Source of the DNA: a phage
Reading direction: 5' to 3' (one strand)
Sequence record: PZ445550.1
DNA length: 64,000 nt
Shown here piece after piece: positions 6,171 through 30,137 of the stretch (positions within the stretch are counted from its first letter, which is position 1; each line of letters begins with the position of its first letter). The notes beneath the pieces are model-generated. The model was not told the DNA's origin. It saw nothing but the letters and a program-made list of their open reading frames with translations, and ran no database searches. The position numbers and the translations under genes were made by a program.

Positions 6171-6938
6171 ATGTCTCTTTCAGATTTAGCCAGGCAAATT
6201 ATTAAGGAACAGTTAGATTCTGCCGGACGTTCTGAAAATAATAAGAATACAGTGGTATACTCCGTGGAAACAGGATTGAAAGATCCTACTAGAGATGGTA
6301 CTATTGCTCAAGTATCATTTAAATTCTCTAAACCAGTATCCCAAGATTTACTTAATATTAGAACAGCTTCTATACTAAAAGCAGTATCTTCTAATTTAGA
6401 TCTTTCTGGAGACTTAGGTGCTTTAGAGAGCCTAATACAGGCAACCGCTGGTAAAAAATCCTCTGTAGGTAAAAAACGTTCTACAGGTAGAGTACAGGTA
6501 AACTTTGGTGATCCTAGCGATGTTGAAGATGGTTATTCAGGCGCAGTAACAGGAGCTTCTGGACGCTTTGTCTCTAATAGTAACATGAAAGTTATTCTTG
6601 AACTAGTTGCTAAGGAATATCTAATTAAGGATATGAAGAAAGCAGGGGCTCCACTAAAATTTAGAACGGGTAGATTTGCTAACTCTTTAAAAATTAAAGA
6701 TGTCATGCTTAGGGATGCCGAAACTAGTAAAGGTTCCCCAGAATTAAGTGTAACATATAACTATATGACTCGTCCTTATTCAGTATTTAATCCTGCAGTA
6801 TCTACATACAGAAGGTTATCTCTAAGACCATACCCCGGTGCTAGAAATCCTCAAAAATTAATTGGGGAGGCAATAGCAAAAGCAGCACGAGACCTGATTC
6901 ATTCCAGATATAAAATTAAGGTCAATCAAGGAACCTAG
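6171..6938 (+). CDS. Head-tail joining / tail completion protein (putative)
   Basis: 255-aa ORF, abuts the upstream gene, between capsid and tail tube genes. Confidence 0.4.
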   Translation: MSLSDLARQIIKEQLDSAGRSENNKNTVVYSVETGLKDPTRDGTIAQVSFKFSKPVSQDLLNIRTASILKAVSSNLDLSGDLGALESLIQATAGKKSSVGKKRSTGRVQVNFGDPSDVEDGYSGAVTGASGRFVSNSNMKVILELVAKEYLIKDMKKAGAPLKFRTGRFANSLKIKDVMLRDAETSKGSPELSVTYNYMTRPYSVFNPAVSTYRRLSLRPYPGARNPQKLIGEAIAKAARDLIHSRYKIKVNQGT

Positions 6939-6941
6939 TAA

Positions 6942-7427
6942 ATGGATCATAGAACAAGTATTGCACAAGCCCTGGTGGACCGAATCTCTAAACAAATGGA
7001 TGGTTCTCAACCAGATGAATATTTTAATAACCTCTATGGAAATGTTTCTCGTCAAACTTATAAATTTGAAGAGATACGAGAGTTTCCTTATGTAGCAGTT
7101 CATATAGGAACTGAAACTGGTCAATATCTTCCATCAGGTCAACAGTGGATGTTTTTAGAACTTCCAATACTGGTGTACGATAAAGAAAAAACAGATATCC
7201 AAGAGCAACTTGAAAAACTCGTAGCGGATATAAAAACCGTTATTGACACAGGTGGAAATTTAGAATATACTGTTAGTAAACCTAATGGATCGACCTTCCC
7301 ATGTGAAGCAACTGATATGGTAATTACATCAGTTAGTACAGATGAGGGTCTACTGGCCCCATACGGTTTAGCGGAAATAAATGTAACAGTGCGCTATATG
7401 CCCCCTAAACGTGCATTACGCAGATAA
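6942..7427 (+). CDS. Tail terminator protein (putative)
   Basis: 161-aa ORF immediately upstream of the tail tube gene. Confidence 0.4.
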   Translation: MDHRTSIAQALVDRISKQMDGSQPDEYFNNLYGNVSRQTYKFEEIREFPYVAVHIGTETGQYLPSGQQWMFLELPILVYDKEKTDIQEQLEKLVADIKTVIDTGGNLEYTVSKPNGSTFPCEATDMVITSVSTDEGLLAPYGLAEINVTVRYMPPKRALRR

Positions 7428-7453
7428 GTTACAGATTAGGAGAATATAAATAA

Positions 7454-8863
7454 ATGTCTTTACAACTATTACGTAATACTCGAATCTTCGTGTCTACTGT
7501 TAAGACTGGTCATACCAAAGAAAACACGCAAGAGATTCTAGTTCAGGATGATATTTCTTGGGGTCAGGACAGTAATTCCACAGATATTACTGTTAACGAA
7601 GCAGGTCCACGACCAACTCGTGGTTCAAAACGTTTCAATGACTCCTTAAATGCTGCTGAATGGAGTTTCTCAACATATATCCTCCCATATAAGGATAAAA
7701 CCACTAATAAGCAAATAGTTCCTGACTATATGTTATGGCATGCTCTTTCTAGTGGTAAAGCTCTAAACTTAGATGGTGACACTGGGGCACATAATAACGA
7801 AACTAACTTCATGGTTAACTTTAAAGATAATTCTTATCATGAGTTAGCTATGTTGCATATTTACATCCTTACTGATAAAGCATGGAGTTATATTGACTCT
7901 TGCCAGATTAATCAGGCAGAAGTAAACGTTGATATCGAGGATATTGGTCGTGTAACTTGGTCTGGTAATGGTAATCAGCTAATTCCACTGGATACTCAGC
8001 CCTTTGATCCAGATGTGGTAGGTATTGATGATGAAACTTATATGACTATTCAGAGTTCTTATATTAAGAATAAGTTAACTATCCTAAAAATTAAGGATAT
8101 GGATTCTGATAAGGCATATGACATTCCTATTACTGGCGGTACTTTTACCATTAATAACAATATCACGTACCTAACTCCAAATATTATGTCTCGTGTAAAT
8201 ATTCCAATTGGTTCATTTACGGGTGCATTTGAATTAACTGGCTCTCTAACGGCGTATCTTAATGATAAAGCTCTCGGATCTATGGATTTATATAAAGATC
8301 TGATTAAAACCCTTAAGGTAGTTAACAAGTTTGAGATTGCACTCATTCTTGGTGGTGAATATGATGATGAGCGTCCAGCAGCTGTACTAGTTGCTAAACA
8401 AGCCCACGTTAACATTCCTACTATTGAGACTGATGATGTACTTGGTACTTCAGTAGAGTTTAAGGCTATCCCTACAGATTTGGATACTGGTGATGAAGGT
8501 TATCTTGGATTTTCTAACAAGTATACAAAAACTACTGTAGCTAATCTGATTGCTACAGGAGATGGTGCTAAAACCCCACCAAAACTGGTGGAGTCAATCA
8601 CAGTTAAATCTGCTAGTGATGCTACTTCTGTAGAAAATAGTAATACTCTACAGATGTCTGTCGAAGTAACTCCATCGGATGCCACTAATAGCGCAGTAAC
8701 TTGGTCTATTTCTAGTGGTAACGCAGCTACAATTGATGCAGAATCTGGACTATTAACTGCTGATGCCTCTAAAACAGGCGCTGTTACTGTAAAAGCTGTA
8801 GCTAAAGACGGTTCTGGTGTAGAAGGTACTAAGAGCATTACAGTTACTACTTCTGGTGGCTAA
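7454..8863 (+). CDS. Major tail tube protein (pb6-like) with C-terminal Ig-like domain
   Basis: 469 aa (T5 pb6 is 464); C-terminal Big2-like segment (TVKSASDATSVENSNTLQMSVEVTPSDATNSAVTWSISSG...). Confidence 0.75.
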   Translation: MSLQLLRNTRIFVSTVKTGHTKENTQEILVQDDISWGQDSNSTDITVNEAGPRPTRGSKRFNDSLNAAEWSFSTYILPYKDKTTNKQIVPDYMLWHALSSGKALNLDGDTGAHNNETNFMVNFKDNSYHELAMLHIYILTDKAWSYIDSCQINQAEVNVDIEDIGRVTWSGNGNQLIPLDTQPFDPDVVGIDDETYMTIQSSYIKNKLTILKIKDMDSDKAYDIPITGGTFTINNNITYLTPNIMSRVNIPIGSFTGAFELTGSLTAYLNDKALGSMDLYKDLIKTLKVVNKFEIALILGGEYDDERPAAVLVAKQAHVNIPTIETDDVLGTSVEFKAIPTDLDTGDEGYLGFSNKYTKTTVANLIATGDGAKTPPKLVESITVKSASDATSVENSNTLQMSVEVTPSDATNSAVTWSISSGNAATIDAESGLLTADASKTGAVTVKAVAKDGSGVEGTKSITVTTSGG

Positions 8864-19996: not shown

Positions 19997-20419
19997 ATGA
20001 GTACTGAAAATAGAGTTATAGATCTAGTAATAGATGAAAAAGTACCTTATGGTTTAATGATGCAATTCCTAGACGTTGATGATAGTACTTATCCACCAAC
20101 TAATACTCCAGTTAATCTAACTGGATACTCTCTAAGGGGGACTATAAAAAGTAGCTTAGATGAGAATGCGGAAACCTTAGCATCATTCACTACTAAAATT
20201 ATTGATGCTGCTCAAGGGGCTGTGGCTATAAGTTTACCTGTAGAATCCGTGGAAAATATAGGAGCTAAAGCATCTAAAGATAGGGATAAATATAACCCTC
20301 GTCAGCGATTCGCAGGATACTATGATATAATTATGACTAGAGATGTTATAGGATCTGCAATTAGCTCCTTTCGTATAATGGAGGGTAAAGTATTTATCAG
20401 TGATGGGGTAACTAAATAA
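19997..20419 (+). CDS. Collar protein (p132-like)
   Basis: 140 aa, same length as T5 p132; immediately upstream of tail fibre gene. Confidence 0.55.
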
Positions 20420-22773
20420 TGGCAGTAACTACTAAGATTATTGTACAACAGATATTAAATATTGATGATACTAAAGCTACTGCTAGTAAATTTCCTAGAT
20501 ACACTGTAACTCTAGGTAACTCTATTAGCTCTATTACTGCAAGTGAATTAGTATCCTCTATTGAGGCTGCGGCTAAATCAGCAGCAGCTGCAAAAGACTC
20601 TGAGATAGCTGCTAAGACTTCAGAGCTTAACGCTAAAGAGTCTGAGCAGGAAGCTGCTATTTCTGCTGGAGCTTCCGAAGCTTCTGCTACTCAGTCCGCT
20701 ACGTCTGCTACTCAGTCCGCTACGTCTGCTACTCAGTCCGCTACGTCTGCTACTAAATCTGCAGAATCAGCAGCCGCAGCAAAAACATCTGAGACTAATG
20801 CTAAGGCTAGTGAAACTAAGGCTAAAACTTCGGATACTAATGCTAAGACTAGTGAGACTAATACTAAGGCTAGTGAAACTAAGGCTAAAACTTCGGAGAC
20901 TAATGCTAAGACTAGTGAGACTAATGCTGCTGCCTCAGCTGCTGCTGCAAAAATTAGTGAAACTAAGGCCGCTGAATCTGCTGCCTCTGCTGCAGACTCT
21001 AAGGAGTTTAGAGATGAAGCAGAGACATTTGCTAGACAAGCTGCAGCATCTGCATCAGCTGCTAAGACTAGTGAGACTAATGCAAAAACGTCGGAAACTA
21101 GCGCAAAGTCTAGTGAGACAAAGGCTAAAGCTAGTGAAACTAATGCAGCTAGTTCTGCAACCTCAGCTAGCCAATCAGTAACCACTATTCAAGGTTTAAA
21201 ATCAGATGTTGAGAAACTAAAATCTGATACCCAAACCATCAAGAATAGTGCTGTGTCCGAAACAACCGCGTTAAAAGATCAAGCAGCTACTTCTGCAACT
21301 AATGCTGCAAACTCTGCTACTGAAGCTGGAAAACAAGCTACTAATGCTGCTATTAGTGCTAAAACTGCTAAGACCGAGGCTGATCGTTCGAAAACTGAAG
21401 CTGATAGATCAGAAGCTGCTGCCAATGCTACTCCTGATATTCAGCCTCTTCCAGATGTTTGGGCACCCCTTAATGACTCTCTAGATATGATTACTGGTTT
21501 TTCTCCTTCATATAAAAAGATAGTAATTGGAGATGATGAAATAACCATCCCTAGTGATAAAGCTATAAAATTTAAACGTGCTTCTGCTGCTACATACGTA
21601 GATAAATCTGGCATGTATAGTGTAGCAGAAACTGATGAACCTAGATTTGAGAAATTAGGTATGCTAATAGAGGGGCAACGAACTAACCTTCTAATTAATA
21701 GTACTAACCCAAGTAAATGGAATAAATCCTCAAACCTTGAACTATCAGCATCTGGTAACGATACTTATGGCTTTCCTTTCGGTAAGTTTACAGTAAAACC
21801 TGCTTTAATAGGACAAACATCAGCTATTAATATAGTAACAGTATCTGGAAGTAAGGGTTTTGATGTTACTGGAAGTGAAAAGTATGTAACTATATCCTGT
21901 AGGGTACAAAGTGGTACTGCAAATTTAAGATGCAGACTTAGATTTGAAAACTATGACGGGTCTGTTTATACTTTTTTAGGTGATGCATACCTGAACCTAT
22001 CTACTCTCGAGATTGAATACACTGGGACTAGGGCTAGCGATATAACAGCTAGTGCAGTAAAGGATTATGGTAGTAAGTGGATATACTACCAGGCTACAAT
22101 TAAATCCCAAGATACTGATAGTATGATTGGTGCTATGGTTCAGTATGCACCTGCTAAGGGTCTTGGTACATTAGAAGGTGATTATATTTACGTATCTACT
22201 CCCCAAGTAGAAGGAGGTCTACGTGCGTCGTCTTTTATTATAACAGAAACTGTACCTGTTACAAGAGCTAGTGATATAGTTACTTTTCCTATTAAAAATA
22301 ATTGGTGTTCACCAGCATTAAGTGCTTTAGTAGAGGTTAATACTAATTGGGATGGTGGAGATATGCCAAATAGAACTGGTGCAGCAAGAATATTAAATGT
22401 ATCAACCGTCGGAGACGCTACAAATATAACAGATGAAAGTTATATGTACTTGGGCTTTGTTTCCTACGGTAATAAAGCAATTATTACAAATGGTAAAGGT
22501 ACAGCTCCAGAGATCAAAAGTGACTTAGCAAGATCTGGTAGGCATAATATCATTGGGTTTATATTTAAAGATAATAGAGAATTACAGGTTGTAGTTGATG
22601 GTGCTCTAGGCCCGGTGGCTACATCTCCCTATTATAGACAAAAATATAGTGATGGATTAATAAATATAGGCGGACAAACCACAGCAGGTACACGTCATAT
22701 GTTTGGACATATAAGAAACCTTCGTATTTGGCACAGGGCTCTTACTGCTAAACAGGTAAAGGAGTATATATGA
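20419..22773 (+). CDS. ltfA: L-shaped tail fibre protein A (no C-terminal chaperone domain)
   Basis: N-terminus resembles T5 pb1 (ITASKFPRYTV...SSITASE...); long Ala/Thr/Ser repeat block (SATQSAT..., AKTSETNAK...); 784 aa versus about 1396 for T5 pb1. Confidence 0.75.
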   Translation: MAVTTKIIVQQILNIDDTKATASKFPRYTVTLGNSISSITASELVSSIEAAAKSAAAAKDSEIAAKTSELNAKESEQEAAISAGASEASATQSATSATQSATSATQSATSATKSAESAAAAKTSETNAKASETKAKTSDTNAKTSETNTKASETKAKTSETNAKTSETNAAASAAAAKISETKAAESAASAADSKEFRDEAETFARQAAASASAAKTSETNAKTSETSAKSSETKAKASETNAASSATSASQSVTTIQGLKSDVEKLKSDTQTIKNSAVSETTALKDQAATSATNAANSATEAGKQATNAAISAKTAKTEADRSKTEADRSEAAANATPDIQPLPDVWAPLNDSLDMITGFSPSYKKIVIGDDEITIPSDKAIKFKRASAATYVDKSGMYSVAETDEPRFEKLGMLIEGQRTNLLINSTNPSKWNKSSNLELSASGNDTYGFPFGKFTVKPALIGQTSAINIVTVSGSKGFDVTGSEKYVTISCRVQSGTANLRCRLRFENYDGSVYTFLGDAYLNLSTLEIEYTGTRASDITASAVKDYGSKWIYYQATIKSQDTDSMIGAMVQYAPAKGLGTLEGDYIYVSTPQVEGGLRASSFIITETVPVTRASDIVTFPIKNNWCSPALSALVEVNTNWDGGDMPNRTGAARILNVSTVGDATNITDESYMYLGFVSYGNKAIITNGKGTAPEIKSDLARSGRHNIIGFIFKDNRELQVVVDGALGPVATSPYYRQKYSDGLINIGGQTTAGTRHMFGHIRNLRIWHRALTAKQVKEYI
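20693..20765 (+). repeat. 21-bp direct tandem repeat (3 copies plus partial) inside ltfA
   Basis: TCTGCTACTCAGTCCGCTACG repeated head-to-tail; encodes SATQSAT heptads. Confidence 0.85.
20806..20931 (+). repeat. 63-bp direct tandem repeat (2 copies) inside ltfA
   Basis: GCTAGTGAAACTAAGGCTAAAACTTCGGA(T/G)ACTAATGCTAAGACTAGTGAGACTAAT... duplicated with a few mismatches. Confidence 0.8.
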
Positions 22774-23048
22774 AAGATATTACTTTAAGATTTAAGGATA
22801 AGGCAACGTACAAAAATTTCCTTATCCAAATAGAGTGGGATACTAATGAAAATCTTCAAAACTATATAATGCTAGATGAGATTGGCTACACGTATACTGA
22901 AACTTCCCAGCCAGGTGACGAGGAGCCGACATATATTCGTAATGAAGGATATTATGTTAATGTAAGGATTCTTGATGAATCCTTTACTTACTCATACTTT
23001 GAGCCTTTTATAGTTCAATTAGATCAGCCACTTCGTGAGTGGGCATAA
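22770..23048 (+). CDS. Hypothetical small protein between the two tail fibre genes
   Basis: 92-aa ORF overlapping the ltfA stop. Confidence 0.4.
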   Translation: MKDITLRFKDKATYKNFLIQIEWDTNENLQNYIMLDEIGYTYTETSQPGDEEPTYIRNEGYYVNVRILDESFTYSYFEPFIVQLDQPLREWA

Positions 23049-23057
23049 GGAGGTATT

Positions 23058-24806
23058 ATGGCCACAATAACTAATATACCAGCTGATATAACCAATCTTA
23101 AGGCTAATCAGTTAAATAAAAATAATAACTTAAGCGACTTAGCAGATAGGGCTGCTGCATGGTTAAACGTCCGGCCCATCGGATCTACTCCACTTGCCGG
23201 AGACCCTGTTGCCGATTATGATGCTGCGACTAAGCGTTGGGTCGAGAACTTAGTAAATATAGGTACTGTTGGCCCAACTATGAATGGTGTTATGAACTAT
23301 GGAGTTGGTGATTTCCACTTACGAGATAGTCGAGCATATAAGCAGCCGTATGAAGTTTTTTCGGACGGTCAATTACTCAACCGTGCAGACTGGCCTGAGC
23401 TTTGGGCTTACGCGCAGATGCTATCGCCTATTGCCGATGCCGACTGGCTTGCGGACCCTTTAAAACGTGGGAAGTATTCGCTTGGTAATGGAACCACAAC
23501 ATTTCGTGTACCAGACCGTAACGGTGTTCAGACAGGAAGTGTTCGTGCACTATTTGCGCGTGGTGATGGCGGGAATTCTTCAATCAACGGCACTATAATG
23601 GAGTCATTCGCGCCTAACATCATTGGCGCAATTGGATTTCACGGAAGTCAATCAGATGGAAGTGGTGCGACTGTTCTGGCATCAGCATCAGGCAGTGCAT
23701 ATGTGGATAGCACGCAAAACAAGTATGTTAACGCTGCAACGCTGTATAACCCTGCGGCAAAATCTTATGGTTCAGTAAGAATTGATGCATCAAGATCAAG
23801 TCCTGCATATGGTCGCAACAATCTTAATACTGACGAGATATTGCCGCGCAACTTCACTGGTGTGTGGGTAATTCGCGCATCCGGTGGATTTGTGGCCGCA
23901 AATACATCTTGGTCTGTTATTGATTCAGATAGCGTAAGACCAAGCTCGTCTACTAGAGTCAGTTCTGGTAAAGTTTTAGCACAGTACAAAATAGGGCAAA
24001 GTCTTGAAGCACAAGCAGAGTTCCGTTCAGATGCTTATATAGATGGCATGTATTACGCCATTATATCTACATATAATAAAACAAAAGGTGTAACAAAAGA
24101 ACTAGCATTTGATGATTCGGGGTTATTAAATTCTGACAGATATAGGGCTCGCTACGGGACTATGATGGCTTGGAGTGAAACAGGTCGTGTTAAAGGTACA
24201 TTTAGTATTGAAGACCAGGCTATTGGCGCGAACTACGCTTTTAACAGCCTTCTTAGTGGTGCTCAATCCAGTCAAGGAGGCTATAAAACTTCGTGTCATT
24301 GGGGGATGATTCACCATAATGCGACATCTTTTGCGCAATCTGTATGGCATATTAGTGGAGATGCTGATAATGCTTATGGTGTTCGTGTTGGTATCCAACC
24401 ATTGAATTCTGATATTTATTTTCACAAATGGCAGCCCGGATCTGAAGAAACATATACTTTACAAAAGAATGCAACTTCAGATAAACGCCTTAAACATTCT
24501 ATAGAAAATACAACTGTTGAAAAAGCTTTAGAAAACATCAAAAATCTAAACTTTGTAACATTTATATATAATAACGACAGTCTACAACGTGTAAGAAGAG
24601 GTGTTATTGCTCAGGAAACAGAAGTCATAGAACCTCTTTATGTTAAAACCAGAAAATTTTATGATAACAGTGGGATAGAACAGGAACAAAAAGAACTTGA
24701 TACAACTCCAATGTTGCTTGATACCATACATGTCGTACAAGCACTTATAGAAAGGATTGAAGATTTAGAGGAAGAACTCAAACAATTAAAAGTACAACTA
24801 GTATAG
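23058..24806 (+). CDS. ltfB: Tail fibre protein B with C-terminal intramolecular chaperone (S74-like) domain
   Basis: N-terminus ATITNIPADITNLKANQLNKNNNLSDLADRAAAWLNVRP; C-terminus has SDKRLKH motif and coiled coil typical of self-cleaving chaperone domains. Confidence 0.7.
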   Translation: MATITNIPADITNLKANQLNKNNNLSDLADRAAAWLNVRPIGSTPLAGDPVADYDAATKRWVENLVNIGTVGPTMNGVMNYGVGDFHLRDSRAYKQPYEVFSDGQLLNRADWPELWAYAQMLSPIADADWLADPLKRGKYSLGNGTTTFRVPDRNGVQTGSVRALFARGDGGNSSINGTIMESFAPNIIGAIGFHGSQSDGSGATVLASASGSAYVDSTQNKYVNAATLYNPAAKSYGSVRIDASRSSPAYGRNNLNTDEILPRNFTGVWVIRASGGFVAANTSWSVIDSDSVRPSSSTRVSSGKVLAQYKIGQSLEAQAEFRSDAYIDGMYYAIISTYNKTKGVTKELAFDDSGLLNSDRYRARYGTMMAWSETGRVKGTFSIEDQAIGANYAFNSLLSGAQSSQGGYKTSCHWGMIHHNATSFAQSVWHISGDADNAYGVRVGIQPLNSDIYFHKWQPGSEETYTLQKNATSDKRLKHSIENTTVEKALENIKNLNFVTFIYNNDSLQRVRRGVIAQETEVIEPLYVKTRKFYDNSGIEQEQKELDTTPMLLDTIHVVQALIERIEDLEEELKQLKVQLV

Positions 24807-24815
24807 TAATAAAAG

Positions 24816-24848
24816 AAAACCCCAGTGAATAATTCACTGGGGTTTATT
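24816..24848. terminator. Bidirectional rho-independent terminator between convergent late and early modules
   Basis: Perfect palindrome AACCCCAGTGAAT/AATTCACTGGGGTT with A-run upstream and T-run downstream. Confidence 0.75.
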
Positions 24849-24850
24849 GT

Positions 24851-25114
24851 TTATCCCTTACAACTTTCTATAATACCAAGATTATAAATGGCTAATAGTA
24901 GTTTTAAATGCTCATTGTTGCTATTAGTACAAAGCTCTATAAAACCTTCGGCATCCCAAAAAATAACATTACCTTCTTTATCTGTTTTTAACACAATCTT
25001 TTCAGGTTCAATAGTTTTAATCGTATAATAGCTTGGCTTAATAGTATCAATGCCTACCATACTAGGATCAGTAAGATTATTTGCTTCCTGAACTTCCAAA
25101 CCCGCCTTCCCCAC
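24851..25114 (-). CDS. Hypothetical protein
   Basis: 87-aa ORF; alternative start at 25060 with AGGAAG ribosome-binding site avoids overlap with dut. Confidence 0.35.
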   Translation of the reverse strand: MGKAGLEVQEANNLTDPSMVGIDTIKPSYYTIKTIEPEKIVLKTDKEGNVIFWDAEGFIELCTNSNNEHLKLLLAIYNLGIIESCKG

Positions 25115-28719: not shown

Positions 28720-29677
28720 ATTTCGCAGCTCTAGCCAAGATTCGATCAATGTCGTCCTGAGATAGCTTCTCGACCTCACGGAAGTAAAGTTCAAGTTCGC
28801 CCAACATATCAAGATCAACAAGATTTAACTTAGCGTCTTTAGTAACTCGATGATTAATCTTCTTATCTAATAAATCAGAGTCTTTGATAGACTTTAATTG
28901 AACAACATCACCAGTAACTTCATAGATTACGCGATCATAATCACTAGGTTCCATTTCTTCACCAACCCCGATTGTTTTACGAATCAGTTGTGGCAAATCA
29001 CCAAGTTCAATCCATTCTACTTTTAACGTATCAGTATCAATGATAAAGCAACCATTTGTACCTTTTGTGCGTTCTCTGTGGAACGATGTAGTTAATGGGG
29101 AGCCTGGGTAAAGAAGTCTAGTAGATCCTATAGTCTGGCTATTAGTATAAGAATGTAAATCGCCAGCAATTACAGTATCATAACAGTTGTACTTAGTTAG
29201 ATCGATTTCTGGTTTTACATGTGGAGGGATTTCACCACGAACATGCGTGAAACATAGTTTTGATTTAGATGGTTTCCATTTAGATTTATGGACTTCATCA
29301 TAGGGAACAATATCAAATTCAGGAGAGCGATAGGGTTTGGTAATTACTTCCCATTTTCCACTAGTTACTTTATTAATAACTCCCGCATAATGATATAGAC
29401 ATGAAATAGTTTTAGTTAACATTTCATGGTTTCCCGTGAAGATTTTACCTGGATGATCAAGTCTTGACATGAACTGTTCTAACAGTTCTATTTCTTCCGA
29501 CGATGGGTCGGCAACATCAAGTATATCACCACCAGCAATATGAAGATCACAGTTATGATTATGGAATATATCATTTAACCGTTCTCCTAGCATCAAGAAG
29601 CGACGCTTCTGCCATTCTTTAGGTATCTTATCTTGGCCCAGCTTAATATGATGATCAGCACTAAATAGTATTTTCAC
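28700..29677 (-). CDS. sbcD: SbcD/Mre11-like nuclease (T5 D12-like)
   Basis: Calcineurin-like phosphoesterase motifs SADHH, GGDILD, GNHE; immediately upstream of the SbcC-like gene. Confidence 0.85.
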   Translation of the reverse strand: MKILFSADHHIKLGQDKIPKEWQKRRFLMLGERLNDIFHNHNCDLHIAGGDILDVADPSSEEIELLEQFMSRLDHPGKIFTGNHEMLTKTISCLYHYAGVINKVTSGKWEVITKPYRSPEFDIVPYDEVHKSKWKPSKSKLCFTHVRGEIPPHVKPEIDLTKYNCYDTVIAGDLHSYTNSQTIGSTRLLYPGSPLTTSFHRERTKGTNGCFIIDTDTLKVEWIELGDLPQLIRKTIGVGEEMEPSDYDRVIYEVTGDVVQLKSIKDSDLLDKKINHRVTKDAKLNLVDLDMLGELELYFREVEKLSQDDIDRILARAAKYVKDYN

Positions 29678-30137
29678 TTAATAGACTATCATATACTGCA
29701 TTTGCTACAGTCTCTGCTTCATGTATGGAATCTGTGTACCCATAATGCTTACCTTTAATTTGAACAAAATATCTACCAGTTGAATGTTTTAAGAAAACAC
29801 CTTTTGGTAATTCTTTATTACTATTCTTGTTTCTATTCAACTGATTGCGTGACTTAGAAGAGTCTAGTAAATTATCTATGGCATTATTTAATGGATTCCT
29901 ATCCTTGTGGTCAATTTCTTCTGGAATATATCCATACACATATAAGAAAGCTAGCTGATGTGCTTTGTACCTTTTACCATCAATTCGGATTTCCAATCTG
30001 ATATAGTTATCAGATACCCATACTTCCGTCCCTGCTATGGAGCCTTTTGATACTCTTCCCCTTGAGACTTTCCATCTAAATATACCAGTTGGAGGGTCAT
30101 AGTCCAATAACTCTTTAAGTCTATCTTGTGTAATCAT
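29661..30137 (-). CDS. HNH homing endonuclease (NUMOD4-like N-terminus plus HNH_3)
   Basis: LDYDPPTGIFRWK and IDHKDRNPLNNAIDNL motifs; inserted between D11-like and sbcD; preceded by a terminator. Confidence 0.75.
   Translation of the reverse strand: MITQDRLKELLDYDPPTGIFRWKVSRGRVSKGSIAGTEVWVSDNYIRLEIRIDGKRYKAHQLAFLYVYGYIPEEIDHKDRNPLNNAIDNLLDSSKSRNQLNRNKNSNKELPKGVFLKHSTGRYFVQIKGKHYGYTDSIHEAETVANAVYDSLLSENTI

Follow-up and report, generated by a model that had tools for sequence, protein, structure and literature searches.

How is the lateral tail fibre of a T5-like phage built when its locus holds two fibre genes with a small open reading frame (ORF) between them, and to which known fibre does such a locus correspond? 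We addressed this question in the phage sequence record PZ445550.1, of which a stretch of 64,000 nucleotides (hereafter the window) was analysed. The window is a segment of a T5-like genome (Demerecviridae, Tequintavirus-type), and its fibre locus forms the end of the tail operon, downstream of the tape-measure, Dit, pb3 and pb4 genes. An earlier note on this DNA had proposed that two proteins take the place of the single fibre protein pb1 of phage T5, and that they match LtfA and LtfB of the branched fibre of phage DT57C. The first half of this proposal stands, with an anchor on the first protein (A) and an S74 chaperone on the second (B), whereas the second half does not, as the elements that join the two DT57C proteins are absent. 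Judged by gene-for-gene homology, the locus is a composite lateral fibre of the type of the BASEL phage IrisVonRoten (Bas32) and not of the DT57C type, an architecture that is already in the literature. We consider it likely that this lateral (L-shaped) fibre consists of an anchored A, a B docked distally and a 92-amino-acid (92-aa) accessory protein.

The coordinates and sizes given earlier for the three ORFs are exact: on the plus strand, gene A (20419-22773) encodes 784 aa, the small ORF (22770-23048) an acidic accessory protein of 92 aa, and gene B (23058-24806) 582 aa. All three are genuine genes and did not arise as ORFs by chance; each matches a tail-fibre family in PHROG (A, E 2.5e-231; the 92-aa protein, phrog_1361, E 4.3e-36; B, E 1.4e-179). 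Ahead of them on the same strand lies ltfC (19997..20419), which encodes the 140-aa lateral-fibre-anchoring collar protein (Pfam LtfC PF23926, E 1.7e-14; 85% identity to DT57C LtfC). The stop codon of gene A overlaps the start of the 92-aa ORF (ATGA), with AAGGAG upstream, and gene B starts 9 nucleotides (nt) past the stop of the 92-aa ORF, with AAGGAGG upstream; to judge from this arrangement, the three genes are tightly translationally coupled. The ltfC gene is single and intact, at 140 aa, in the window, DT57C and Bas32, and is broken into two small coding sequences (CDS), T5.135 and T5.136, in the T5 record NC_005859 (5056-5480 of the extracted locus), a split consistent with a frameshift error that Ayala et al. 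pointed out in the sequence of T5 (PMC10713586).

The assignment to the Bas32 type is carried by orthology over full lengths and in the same order after ltfC: A corresponds to Gp22 (61% identity), the 92-aa protein to Gp23 (78%) and B to Gp24 (62%). Similar loci occur in Bas34, mar004NP2, L6jm, VSe12, SIA3lw and others. An AlphaFold-Multimer model of the Bas32 fibre depicts Gp24 as T-shaped, with a Gp12-like receptor-binding domain (RBD1) and a T5-like RBD2 with chaperone, attached to the proximal Gp22, whose extra galectin-like domain may serve as a further RBD (Humolli et al. 2025; PMC11990801). The 62% identity to Gp24 leads us to infer the same T shape, with RBD1 and RBD2, for B. The C-terminal galectin- or lectin-like domain of the proximal Bas32 fibre is present in A as well (Laminin_G_3, NF048003 and lectin-fold matches), and B has the N-terminal motif, stem, variable regions and S74 chaperone of its Bas32 counterpart. 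The window differs from Bas32 in the repeat numbers of its shaft and in the lectin domains of A and variable regions of B, which have diverged to 14-46% block identity in an orthologue set that includes Bas32, so that the receptor specificity probably differs from that of Bas32, a phage able to infect K-12 in which the O16 O-antigen has been restored (PMC8594841). The 92-aa gene and the N-terminal motif of B, to which we return below, are not dealt with in the published description of Bas32 (PMC11990801). That two fibre proteins, and not one, reach the particle is supported by the relative SIA3lw (A homologue, 61% identity; B homologue, 62.5%), in which proteins of both types were identified by mass spectrometry (MS) from gel bands of a phage preparation (PMC12752171); the A homologue of mar004NP2 was likewise confirmed by MS.

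The likeness to DT57C and DT571/2 is real and ends at the joint. These phages have two fibre proteins after a near-identical ltfC, with the same anchor in the first protein (PMC4728585, PMC10713586), and the stem and first receptor-binding region of B are homologous to the distal half of LtfA and to LtfB. The joint of DT57C is made by a segment of LtfA resembling phiEco32 gp14 (aa 223-471) and by a gp15-like N-terminus of 45 residues on LtfB, and both proteins carry S74 chaperones (PMC4728585). Searched against phiEco32 gp14, A gave no match at E 0.01, whereas DT57C LtfA 228-471, taken as a control, matched at E 2e-53; a BLASTP comparison of A with DT57C LtfA found nothing beyond ~aa 224, only the N-terminus and the low-complexity shaft aligning. 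In B, similarity to gp15 is confined to aa 49-313 and 466-561, the receptor-binding and chaperone regions, whereas residues 1-45 of DT57C LtfB are 71% identical to gp15 1-45. Docking of the DT57C type was therefore rejected at the level of sequence, both the gp14-like and the gp15-like elements being absent while their positive controls match. Nor do both proteins carry S74, for PF13884 occurs only in B and A ends in Laminin_G_3; the lectin domains of A stand in place of the RBD and S74 chaperone of LtfA. DT57C has no gene between ltfA and ltfB, in contrast to the 92-aa gene of the window. The attachment point of B on A is probably distal and not mid-shaft as in DT57C, and, as the joint differs, the DT57C model should not be transferred uncritically to this locus. 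T5 pb1, a single L-shaped fibre of 1396 aa, occupies the same position and shares the N-terminal anchor and the type of chaperone motif (SDARLK, as against SDKRLK in B), but holds anchor, shaft, tip and chaperone on one polypeptide, whereas the window divides these functions over A and B and adds an accessory protein. Phage Gostya9, considered as another bearer of this fibre type, proved a wrong candidate, having a single 889-aa ltfA.

Protein A starts like pb1, as had been claimed: aa 1-304 are 46% identical to T5 pb1 aa 1-264, and aa 1-184 match the DT57C LtfA chain of PDB 8hqz (E 1.2e-33). In the cryo-electron microscopy structure of DT57C, the first ~40 LtfA residues thread into a dodecameric ring of LtfC, and T40 marks the start of a trimeric helix (PMC10713586); T40 is conserved in A. 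Residues 1-39 (20419..20535), ~97% conserved in T5-like orthologues and aligning to the N-termini of DT57C LtfA and T5 pb1, form the anchor that inserts into the LtfC ring, and homology to the solved structure shows A to be held in this collar. The following shaft (aa 40-340; 20536..21438) is rich in Ala, Ser, Thr, Lys and Glu, is 60-80% conserved among orthologues and gives a low-complexity alignment to the helical region of DT57C LtfA; from its composition and this homology it is presumed to be a trimeric coiled coil. The repeat region noticed earlier is genuine, the shaft of gene A containing tandem repeats of a 21-nt unit (x3.4, 20683-20754) and of a 63-nt unit (x2.2, 20790-20925).

Two observations concern this repeat region. 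ORFs of 150 aa (20733-21185, minus strand) and 127 aa (20798-21181, plus strand) lie inside it and, like other short ORFs there, are not genes but low-complexity strings of Leu/Ala/Val or Leu/Arg/Lys that the repeats produce. The Escherichia phage KookSpook (PP925842.1), 99.9% identical to the window over 19997-24900, lacks 62 base pairs (bp) inside the 63-bp repeat (window ~20863-20924) and differs by one single-nucleotide polymorphism. The loss shifts the frame of its gene A, which is annotated as two CDS (6423-6899 and 6802-8715 of the extracted locus), while the window ORF is intact at 784 aa. Either the repeat collapsed during assembly of the KookSpook sequence, or the deletion is genuine and reflects selection of a fibre-null variant on a rough host in the laboratory; a fibre-null variant of that kind, DT530(1), has been reported (PMC4728585).

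The remainder of A is a C-terminal module in common with fibres of Nonagvirus, T1-like (Drexlerviridae), Dhillonvirus, lambdoid prophage and rV5-like phages, whose N-terminal anchors are quite different; homology to these side fibres starts at aa 257-344, depending on the phage. The module opens with a highly conserved neck (aa 341-415; 21439..21663) that has many invariant columns among 23 homologues and a low pLDDT (predicted local distance difference test) in the monomer model, as expected of an inter-chain segment. It continues with a first lectin-like beta-sandwich (aa 416-617; 21664..22269), similar to the head-spike fibre of gene transfer agents (NCBIfam NF048003, E 3.4e-19) and the only confident part of a monomer AlphaFold model of the A C-terminus (pLDDT ~75-96), and ends with a LamG/ConA-like domain (aa 674-781; 22438..22761; Pfam Laminin_G_3, E 2.4e-07, above the gathering score), which corresponds to the "galectin-like domain" of Bas32 Gp22. 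A search of PDB sequences with the A C-terminus returned nothing relevant. Consistent with the earlier note, A carries no self-cleaving chaperone, having neither a Peptidase_S74 match nor a [ST]D.R.K motif. Fold, family and hypervariability together make it most likely that the lectin-like domains of the A tip, two hypervariable beta-sandwiches per chain, bind surface glycans.

Protein B begins with a conserved adaptor motif, M-x-T-x-T-x-IP-x-DI-[TK]-x-LK (aa 1-15; 23058..23102), in which M1, T5, I7, P8, D10, I11, L14 and K15 are invariant across otherwise unrelated fibres. A conserved distal-fibre stem follows (aa 16-120; 23103..23417), near-identical to DT57C LtfA aa 531-630, and then a variable receptor-binding region (aa 121-473; 23418..24476) that would hold both domains, RBD1 and RBD2, of the T-shaped model. 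The proteins to which B aligns are fibre proteins: aa 15-364 match DT57C LtfA 527-875 (E 2.9e-133) and aa 30-582 are 44% identical to DT57C LtfB 206-788, which makes B the counterpart of their distal half; against T5 pb1 it has no BLASTP similarity at E 1e-3. The S74-like chaperone announced for the C-terminus of B (aa 474-582 plus stop; 24477..24806) was recovered as Pfam Peptidase_S74 (PF13884, aa 474-524, E 1.2e-11, 45 bits against a cut-off of 22), with SDKRLKH at aa 474-480. Its S474-DKRLK aligns with S1264-DARLK of T5 pb1, and the Ser-Asp-x-Arg-x-Lys cleavage motif is present. In the S74 chaperones of T5 pb1 and endosialidases the C-terminal part is cleaved off after folding. By analogy, B is predicted to lose its last ~109 residues through a cut next to Ser474, so that the mature protein would measure ~51 kDa; the gel band of the B homologue of SIA3lw, between 75 and 51 kDa (PMC12752171), speaks neither for nor against cleavage.

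Which parts of these proteins touch the host is suggested by their variability, which we profiled as mean identity to the window protein per block over 6-7 T5-like orthologues, Bas32 included. In A, the anchor (aa 1-60) stays above 0.9 and the shaft at 0.6-0.8, while identity falls to 0.27-0.42 in the first lectin-like domain (aa 421-600) and to 0.14-0.22 in the LamG-like domain (aa 661-750), the most variable stretch of A. In B, the stem (aa 31-120) is kept at 0.89-0.97, with 0.12-0.31 at aa 181-240 and 0.25-0.46 at aa 301-510. Hypervariability is thus restricted to these two stretches of A and two of B, and anchor, neck, B stem and the 92-aa protein are conserved. The idea that receptor binding is shared by two proteins fits this profile, the C-terminal parts of both being hypervariable as receptor binding predicts; that the A tip is as variable as the binding regions of B supports it as a genuine receptor-binding element.

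The small gene between A and B is not incidental. Homologues of it occur in 207 phage records and stand directly after an A-type fibre gene in every locus inspected, and the 92-aa ORF is, by this conservation of gene order, an obligately linked part of a cassette. We examined 80 loci seeded on an alignment of the 92-aa family, a single-sequence query having given 3 close relatives only. A downstream fibre-like protein of 151-586 aa that starts with the adaptor motif was found in 34 of the 80; these loci span T5-like, Nonagvirus, T1-like and lambdoid phages, and their B bodies are unrelated (e.g., JenP1 gp25). More widely, lambdoid, Nonagvirus (JenP1), T1-like, Dhillonvirus and rV5-like phages have fibre tips 36-70% identical to A aa 257/341-784, followed by a homologous small gene (88-110 aa) and, in many, by a third gene carrying the N-terminal motif of B. 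They differ from the window in their anchors (PF08400 of the lambda Stf type, PF03406/PF12571) and in B bodies that are unrelated and shorter (189-363 aa) or, in some, missing.

The association was also approached from the other end, by scanning IMG/VR with the back-translated adaptor motif as a degenerate DNA pattern, for which fewer than one match was estimated to be expected by chance. The scan returned at least 120 loci, and all 120 listed matches are ORF starts. Among the matches listed, 119 lay on contigs with enough upstream sequence to be evaluated, from T5-like and lambdoid phages, and in every one a gene of the 92-aa family ends 5-15 nt before the motif, with an A-type tip ahead of that gene; the Nonagvirus and T1-like loci of the same layout come from the search seeded on the 92-aa gene. 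As the association spans unrelated tail types, the partner of the motif should be the cassette and not some tail protein particular to one lineage. New here, and a modest addition to the published architecture, are the conserved motif and its obligate pairing with the 92-aa gene, which point to a portable joint not previously described. That this joint is formed by the 92-aa protein, the 15-residue peptide that opens B and the neck and tip of A, is common to T5-like, Nonagvirus, T1-like and lambdoid phages and keeps the small protein in the virion as its hinge seems to us less likely than not; if it were so, any receptor-binding fibre given the motif could plug onto a lectin-tipped side fibre.

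Some by-products of these searches deserve mention. In the lambdoid prophages that have a conserved membrane-protein gene at the position of B, this gene begins ~13 nt past the 92-aa gene and mostly encodes 97 aa (MDISPLLHALCAVAAQ...); in ev207 sitABCD iron/manganese transporter cargo comes next. Lying at the end of the prophage, the gene may act as a moron or in superinfection exclusion. H2 (MG065692.1) and other records labelled "Campylobacter phage" are among the sequence matches, and C13, C11, A121, A12a and C2 of this label carry T5-like or rV5-like coliphage fibre loci (87% nucleotide identity); their Campylobacter host labels look doubtful, the sequences being possibly coliphage contaminants.

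The 92-aa protein itself is acidic (11.2 kDa; isoelectric point 4.25), belongs to no Pfam or NCBIfam family that we could match and found nothing relevant among PDB sequences. Its model is a small alpha/beta domain (pLDDT 85.8) with an invariant C-terminal QPLREWA tail, predicted to be unstructured and the most conserved part of the protein. Such a tail suggests a partner-binding peptide and favours a role as an assembly partner. We therefore lean, tentatively and with slightly less than even confidence, towards an assembly partner that would engage A through this tail; this is the weakest step of our model, yet we rank it above a permanent hinge.

That other reading has the 92-aa protein residing in the virion as a hinge or adaptor that bridges the A tip and the N-terminal peptide of B, much as small proteins join the half-fibres of T4, in place of a transient assembly factor. 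The position of its gene between A-type and B-type genes, the start of B 5-15 nt behind it with tight translational coupling, the unstructured tail that is typical of a partner-binding peptide, and the BASEL annotation of its homologue as "tail fiber protein" would all suit a hinge. However, many lambdoid prophages without B keep the gene intact, as do rV5-like phages, whose downstream gene is a different one; its homologue is unreported among the virion bands of SIA3lw, where bands of ~19 kDa and larger were analysed, and the protein has no structural similarity to any known fibre joint. We regard the hinge as possible but unlikely. Much less probable is that B is an independent fibre attached elsewhere, to the collar, pb3 or pb4, which merely shares the operon, with A alone as the complete lateral fibre and its lectin tip as the sole distal end. 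Cassettes of A-type and 92-aa genes without B do exist, so that A can be a complete fibre, and weak density in DT57C has been attributed to LtfB folded back on the tail tip (PMC10713586); yet, among the loci evaluated, the adaptor motif lies only beside such cassettes, in phages with unrelated tail tips, 15 residues are very short for a baseplate anchor, and the baseplate-binding homologues of Wifcevirus have a large N-terminal domain (PMC11990801). Least probable of all, to the point that we give it hardly any credence, is a branched fibre of the DT57C type, in which B would dock through a gp15-like N-terminus on a gp14-like mid-A segment and each protein would have its own RBD and self-cleaving chaperone. 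Such a fibre would account for the shared genomic position, with two fibre genes after ltfC, and for the 44% identity of B to LtfB, but it founders on an A that has no gp14 match and no S74, on a B N-terminus unrelated to gp15 and to DT57C LtfB 1-45 where the controls match, and on the lack of a 92-aa gene in DT57C.

The preferred reading, a Bas32-type fibre with B docked distally on A and the 92-aa protein as accessory, has several observations weighing against it. The docking of B on A is drawn from gene linkage and from the published prediction for the orthologue, and the Gp12-like RBD1 was not recovered by sequence, the Pfam Collar match in B being subthreshold (E 0.071). The monomer model of the A C-terminal part is mediocre (mean pLDDT 63.8), and Foldseek relates it with weak scores (E 1e-4 to 1e-3) to folds of the ConA-like lectin kind, among them galectin, CBM40, pentraxin and BoNT-Hc, and, also weakly, to a fibre chain of phage Pa193. 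In 42 of the 80 seeded loci, from lambdoid prophages, a membrane protein of 95-146 aa lies downstream and there is no B; A-type and 92-aa genes are kept there nonetheless, and the 92-aa protein therefore does not need B. Owing to the many near-identical E. coli prophages among them, the 119 linked loci amount to about five independent lineages. A comparison of A and 92-aa sequences between loci with and without B found only 3 differing columns and no docking surface, and is uninformative because the B-less set is a narrow clade. A structural search with the 92-aa protein found no informative relative, and the size ranges of the virion MS in SIA3lw and mar004NP2 leave out a protein of its size; proteomics of mar004NP2 detected 8 proteins in all, so the lack of B and of the 92-aa protein there is uninformative.

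On the preferred reading, A would trimerise and, like its DT57C and T5 counterparts, be held at the tail tip by the insertion of its first ~40 residues into the LtfC collar, and its long, repeat-rich coiled-coil shaft would lead to a portable module of a neck and two lectin-like domains per chain. B would be a separate trimeric distal fibre whose N-terminal peptide of ~15 residues docks onto this distal module of A, and its C-terminal S74 domain would act as an intramolecular chaperone before self-cleavage next to Ser474. The 92-aa protein would be an accessory factor tied to the lectin tip of A, likely a dedicated assembly partner. A fibre of this kind would offer several independently exchangeable glycan-binding surfaces, probably three or four rather than two, for passage through specific O-antigen layers before pb5 binds the outer-membrane receptor, which would make the locus a main determinant of host range where the strains are smooth, but one that the phage can do without on rough strains. 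By analogy with experiments on T5, DT57C and BASEL phages, the locus probably decides the range of O-antigen-coated hosts. Lateral fibres decide whether T5-like phages cross the O-antigen of wild E. coli and Salmonella, and this role makes the locus a natural target for host-range prediction and engineering. The window adds one more allele set to the Bas32 architecture, and the short motif together with the 92-aa gene would mark a transferable joint that could guide the swapping of distal fibres between unrelated siphoviruses.

Downstream of gene B, a bidirectional intrinsic terminator (24817-24845; 13-bp stem with 6 GC pairs, T-rich tail on both strands) separates the tail operon from the converging dUTPase and replication genes, and the annotation of T5 places a terminator, likewise bidirectional, at the corresponding site. 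Just past it, an 87-aa ORF on the minus strand (24851-25114) overlaps the end of the dUTPase gene; its positional counterparts, T5.132 and Bas34 gp24, are each annotated as hypothetical. Further on, a 158-aa ORF on the minus strand (29661-30137), annotated as an HNH endonuclease in KookSpook, is flanked by an SbcD-like gene and by a gene annotated there as single-strand DNA-binding protein. A counterpart is absent at that spot in the DT57C-type and Gostya9 annotations seen, and the ORF is probably a mobile homing endonuclease.

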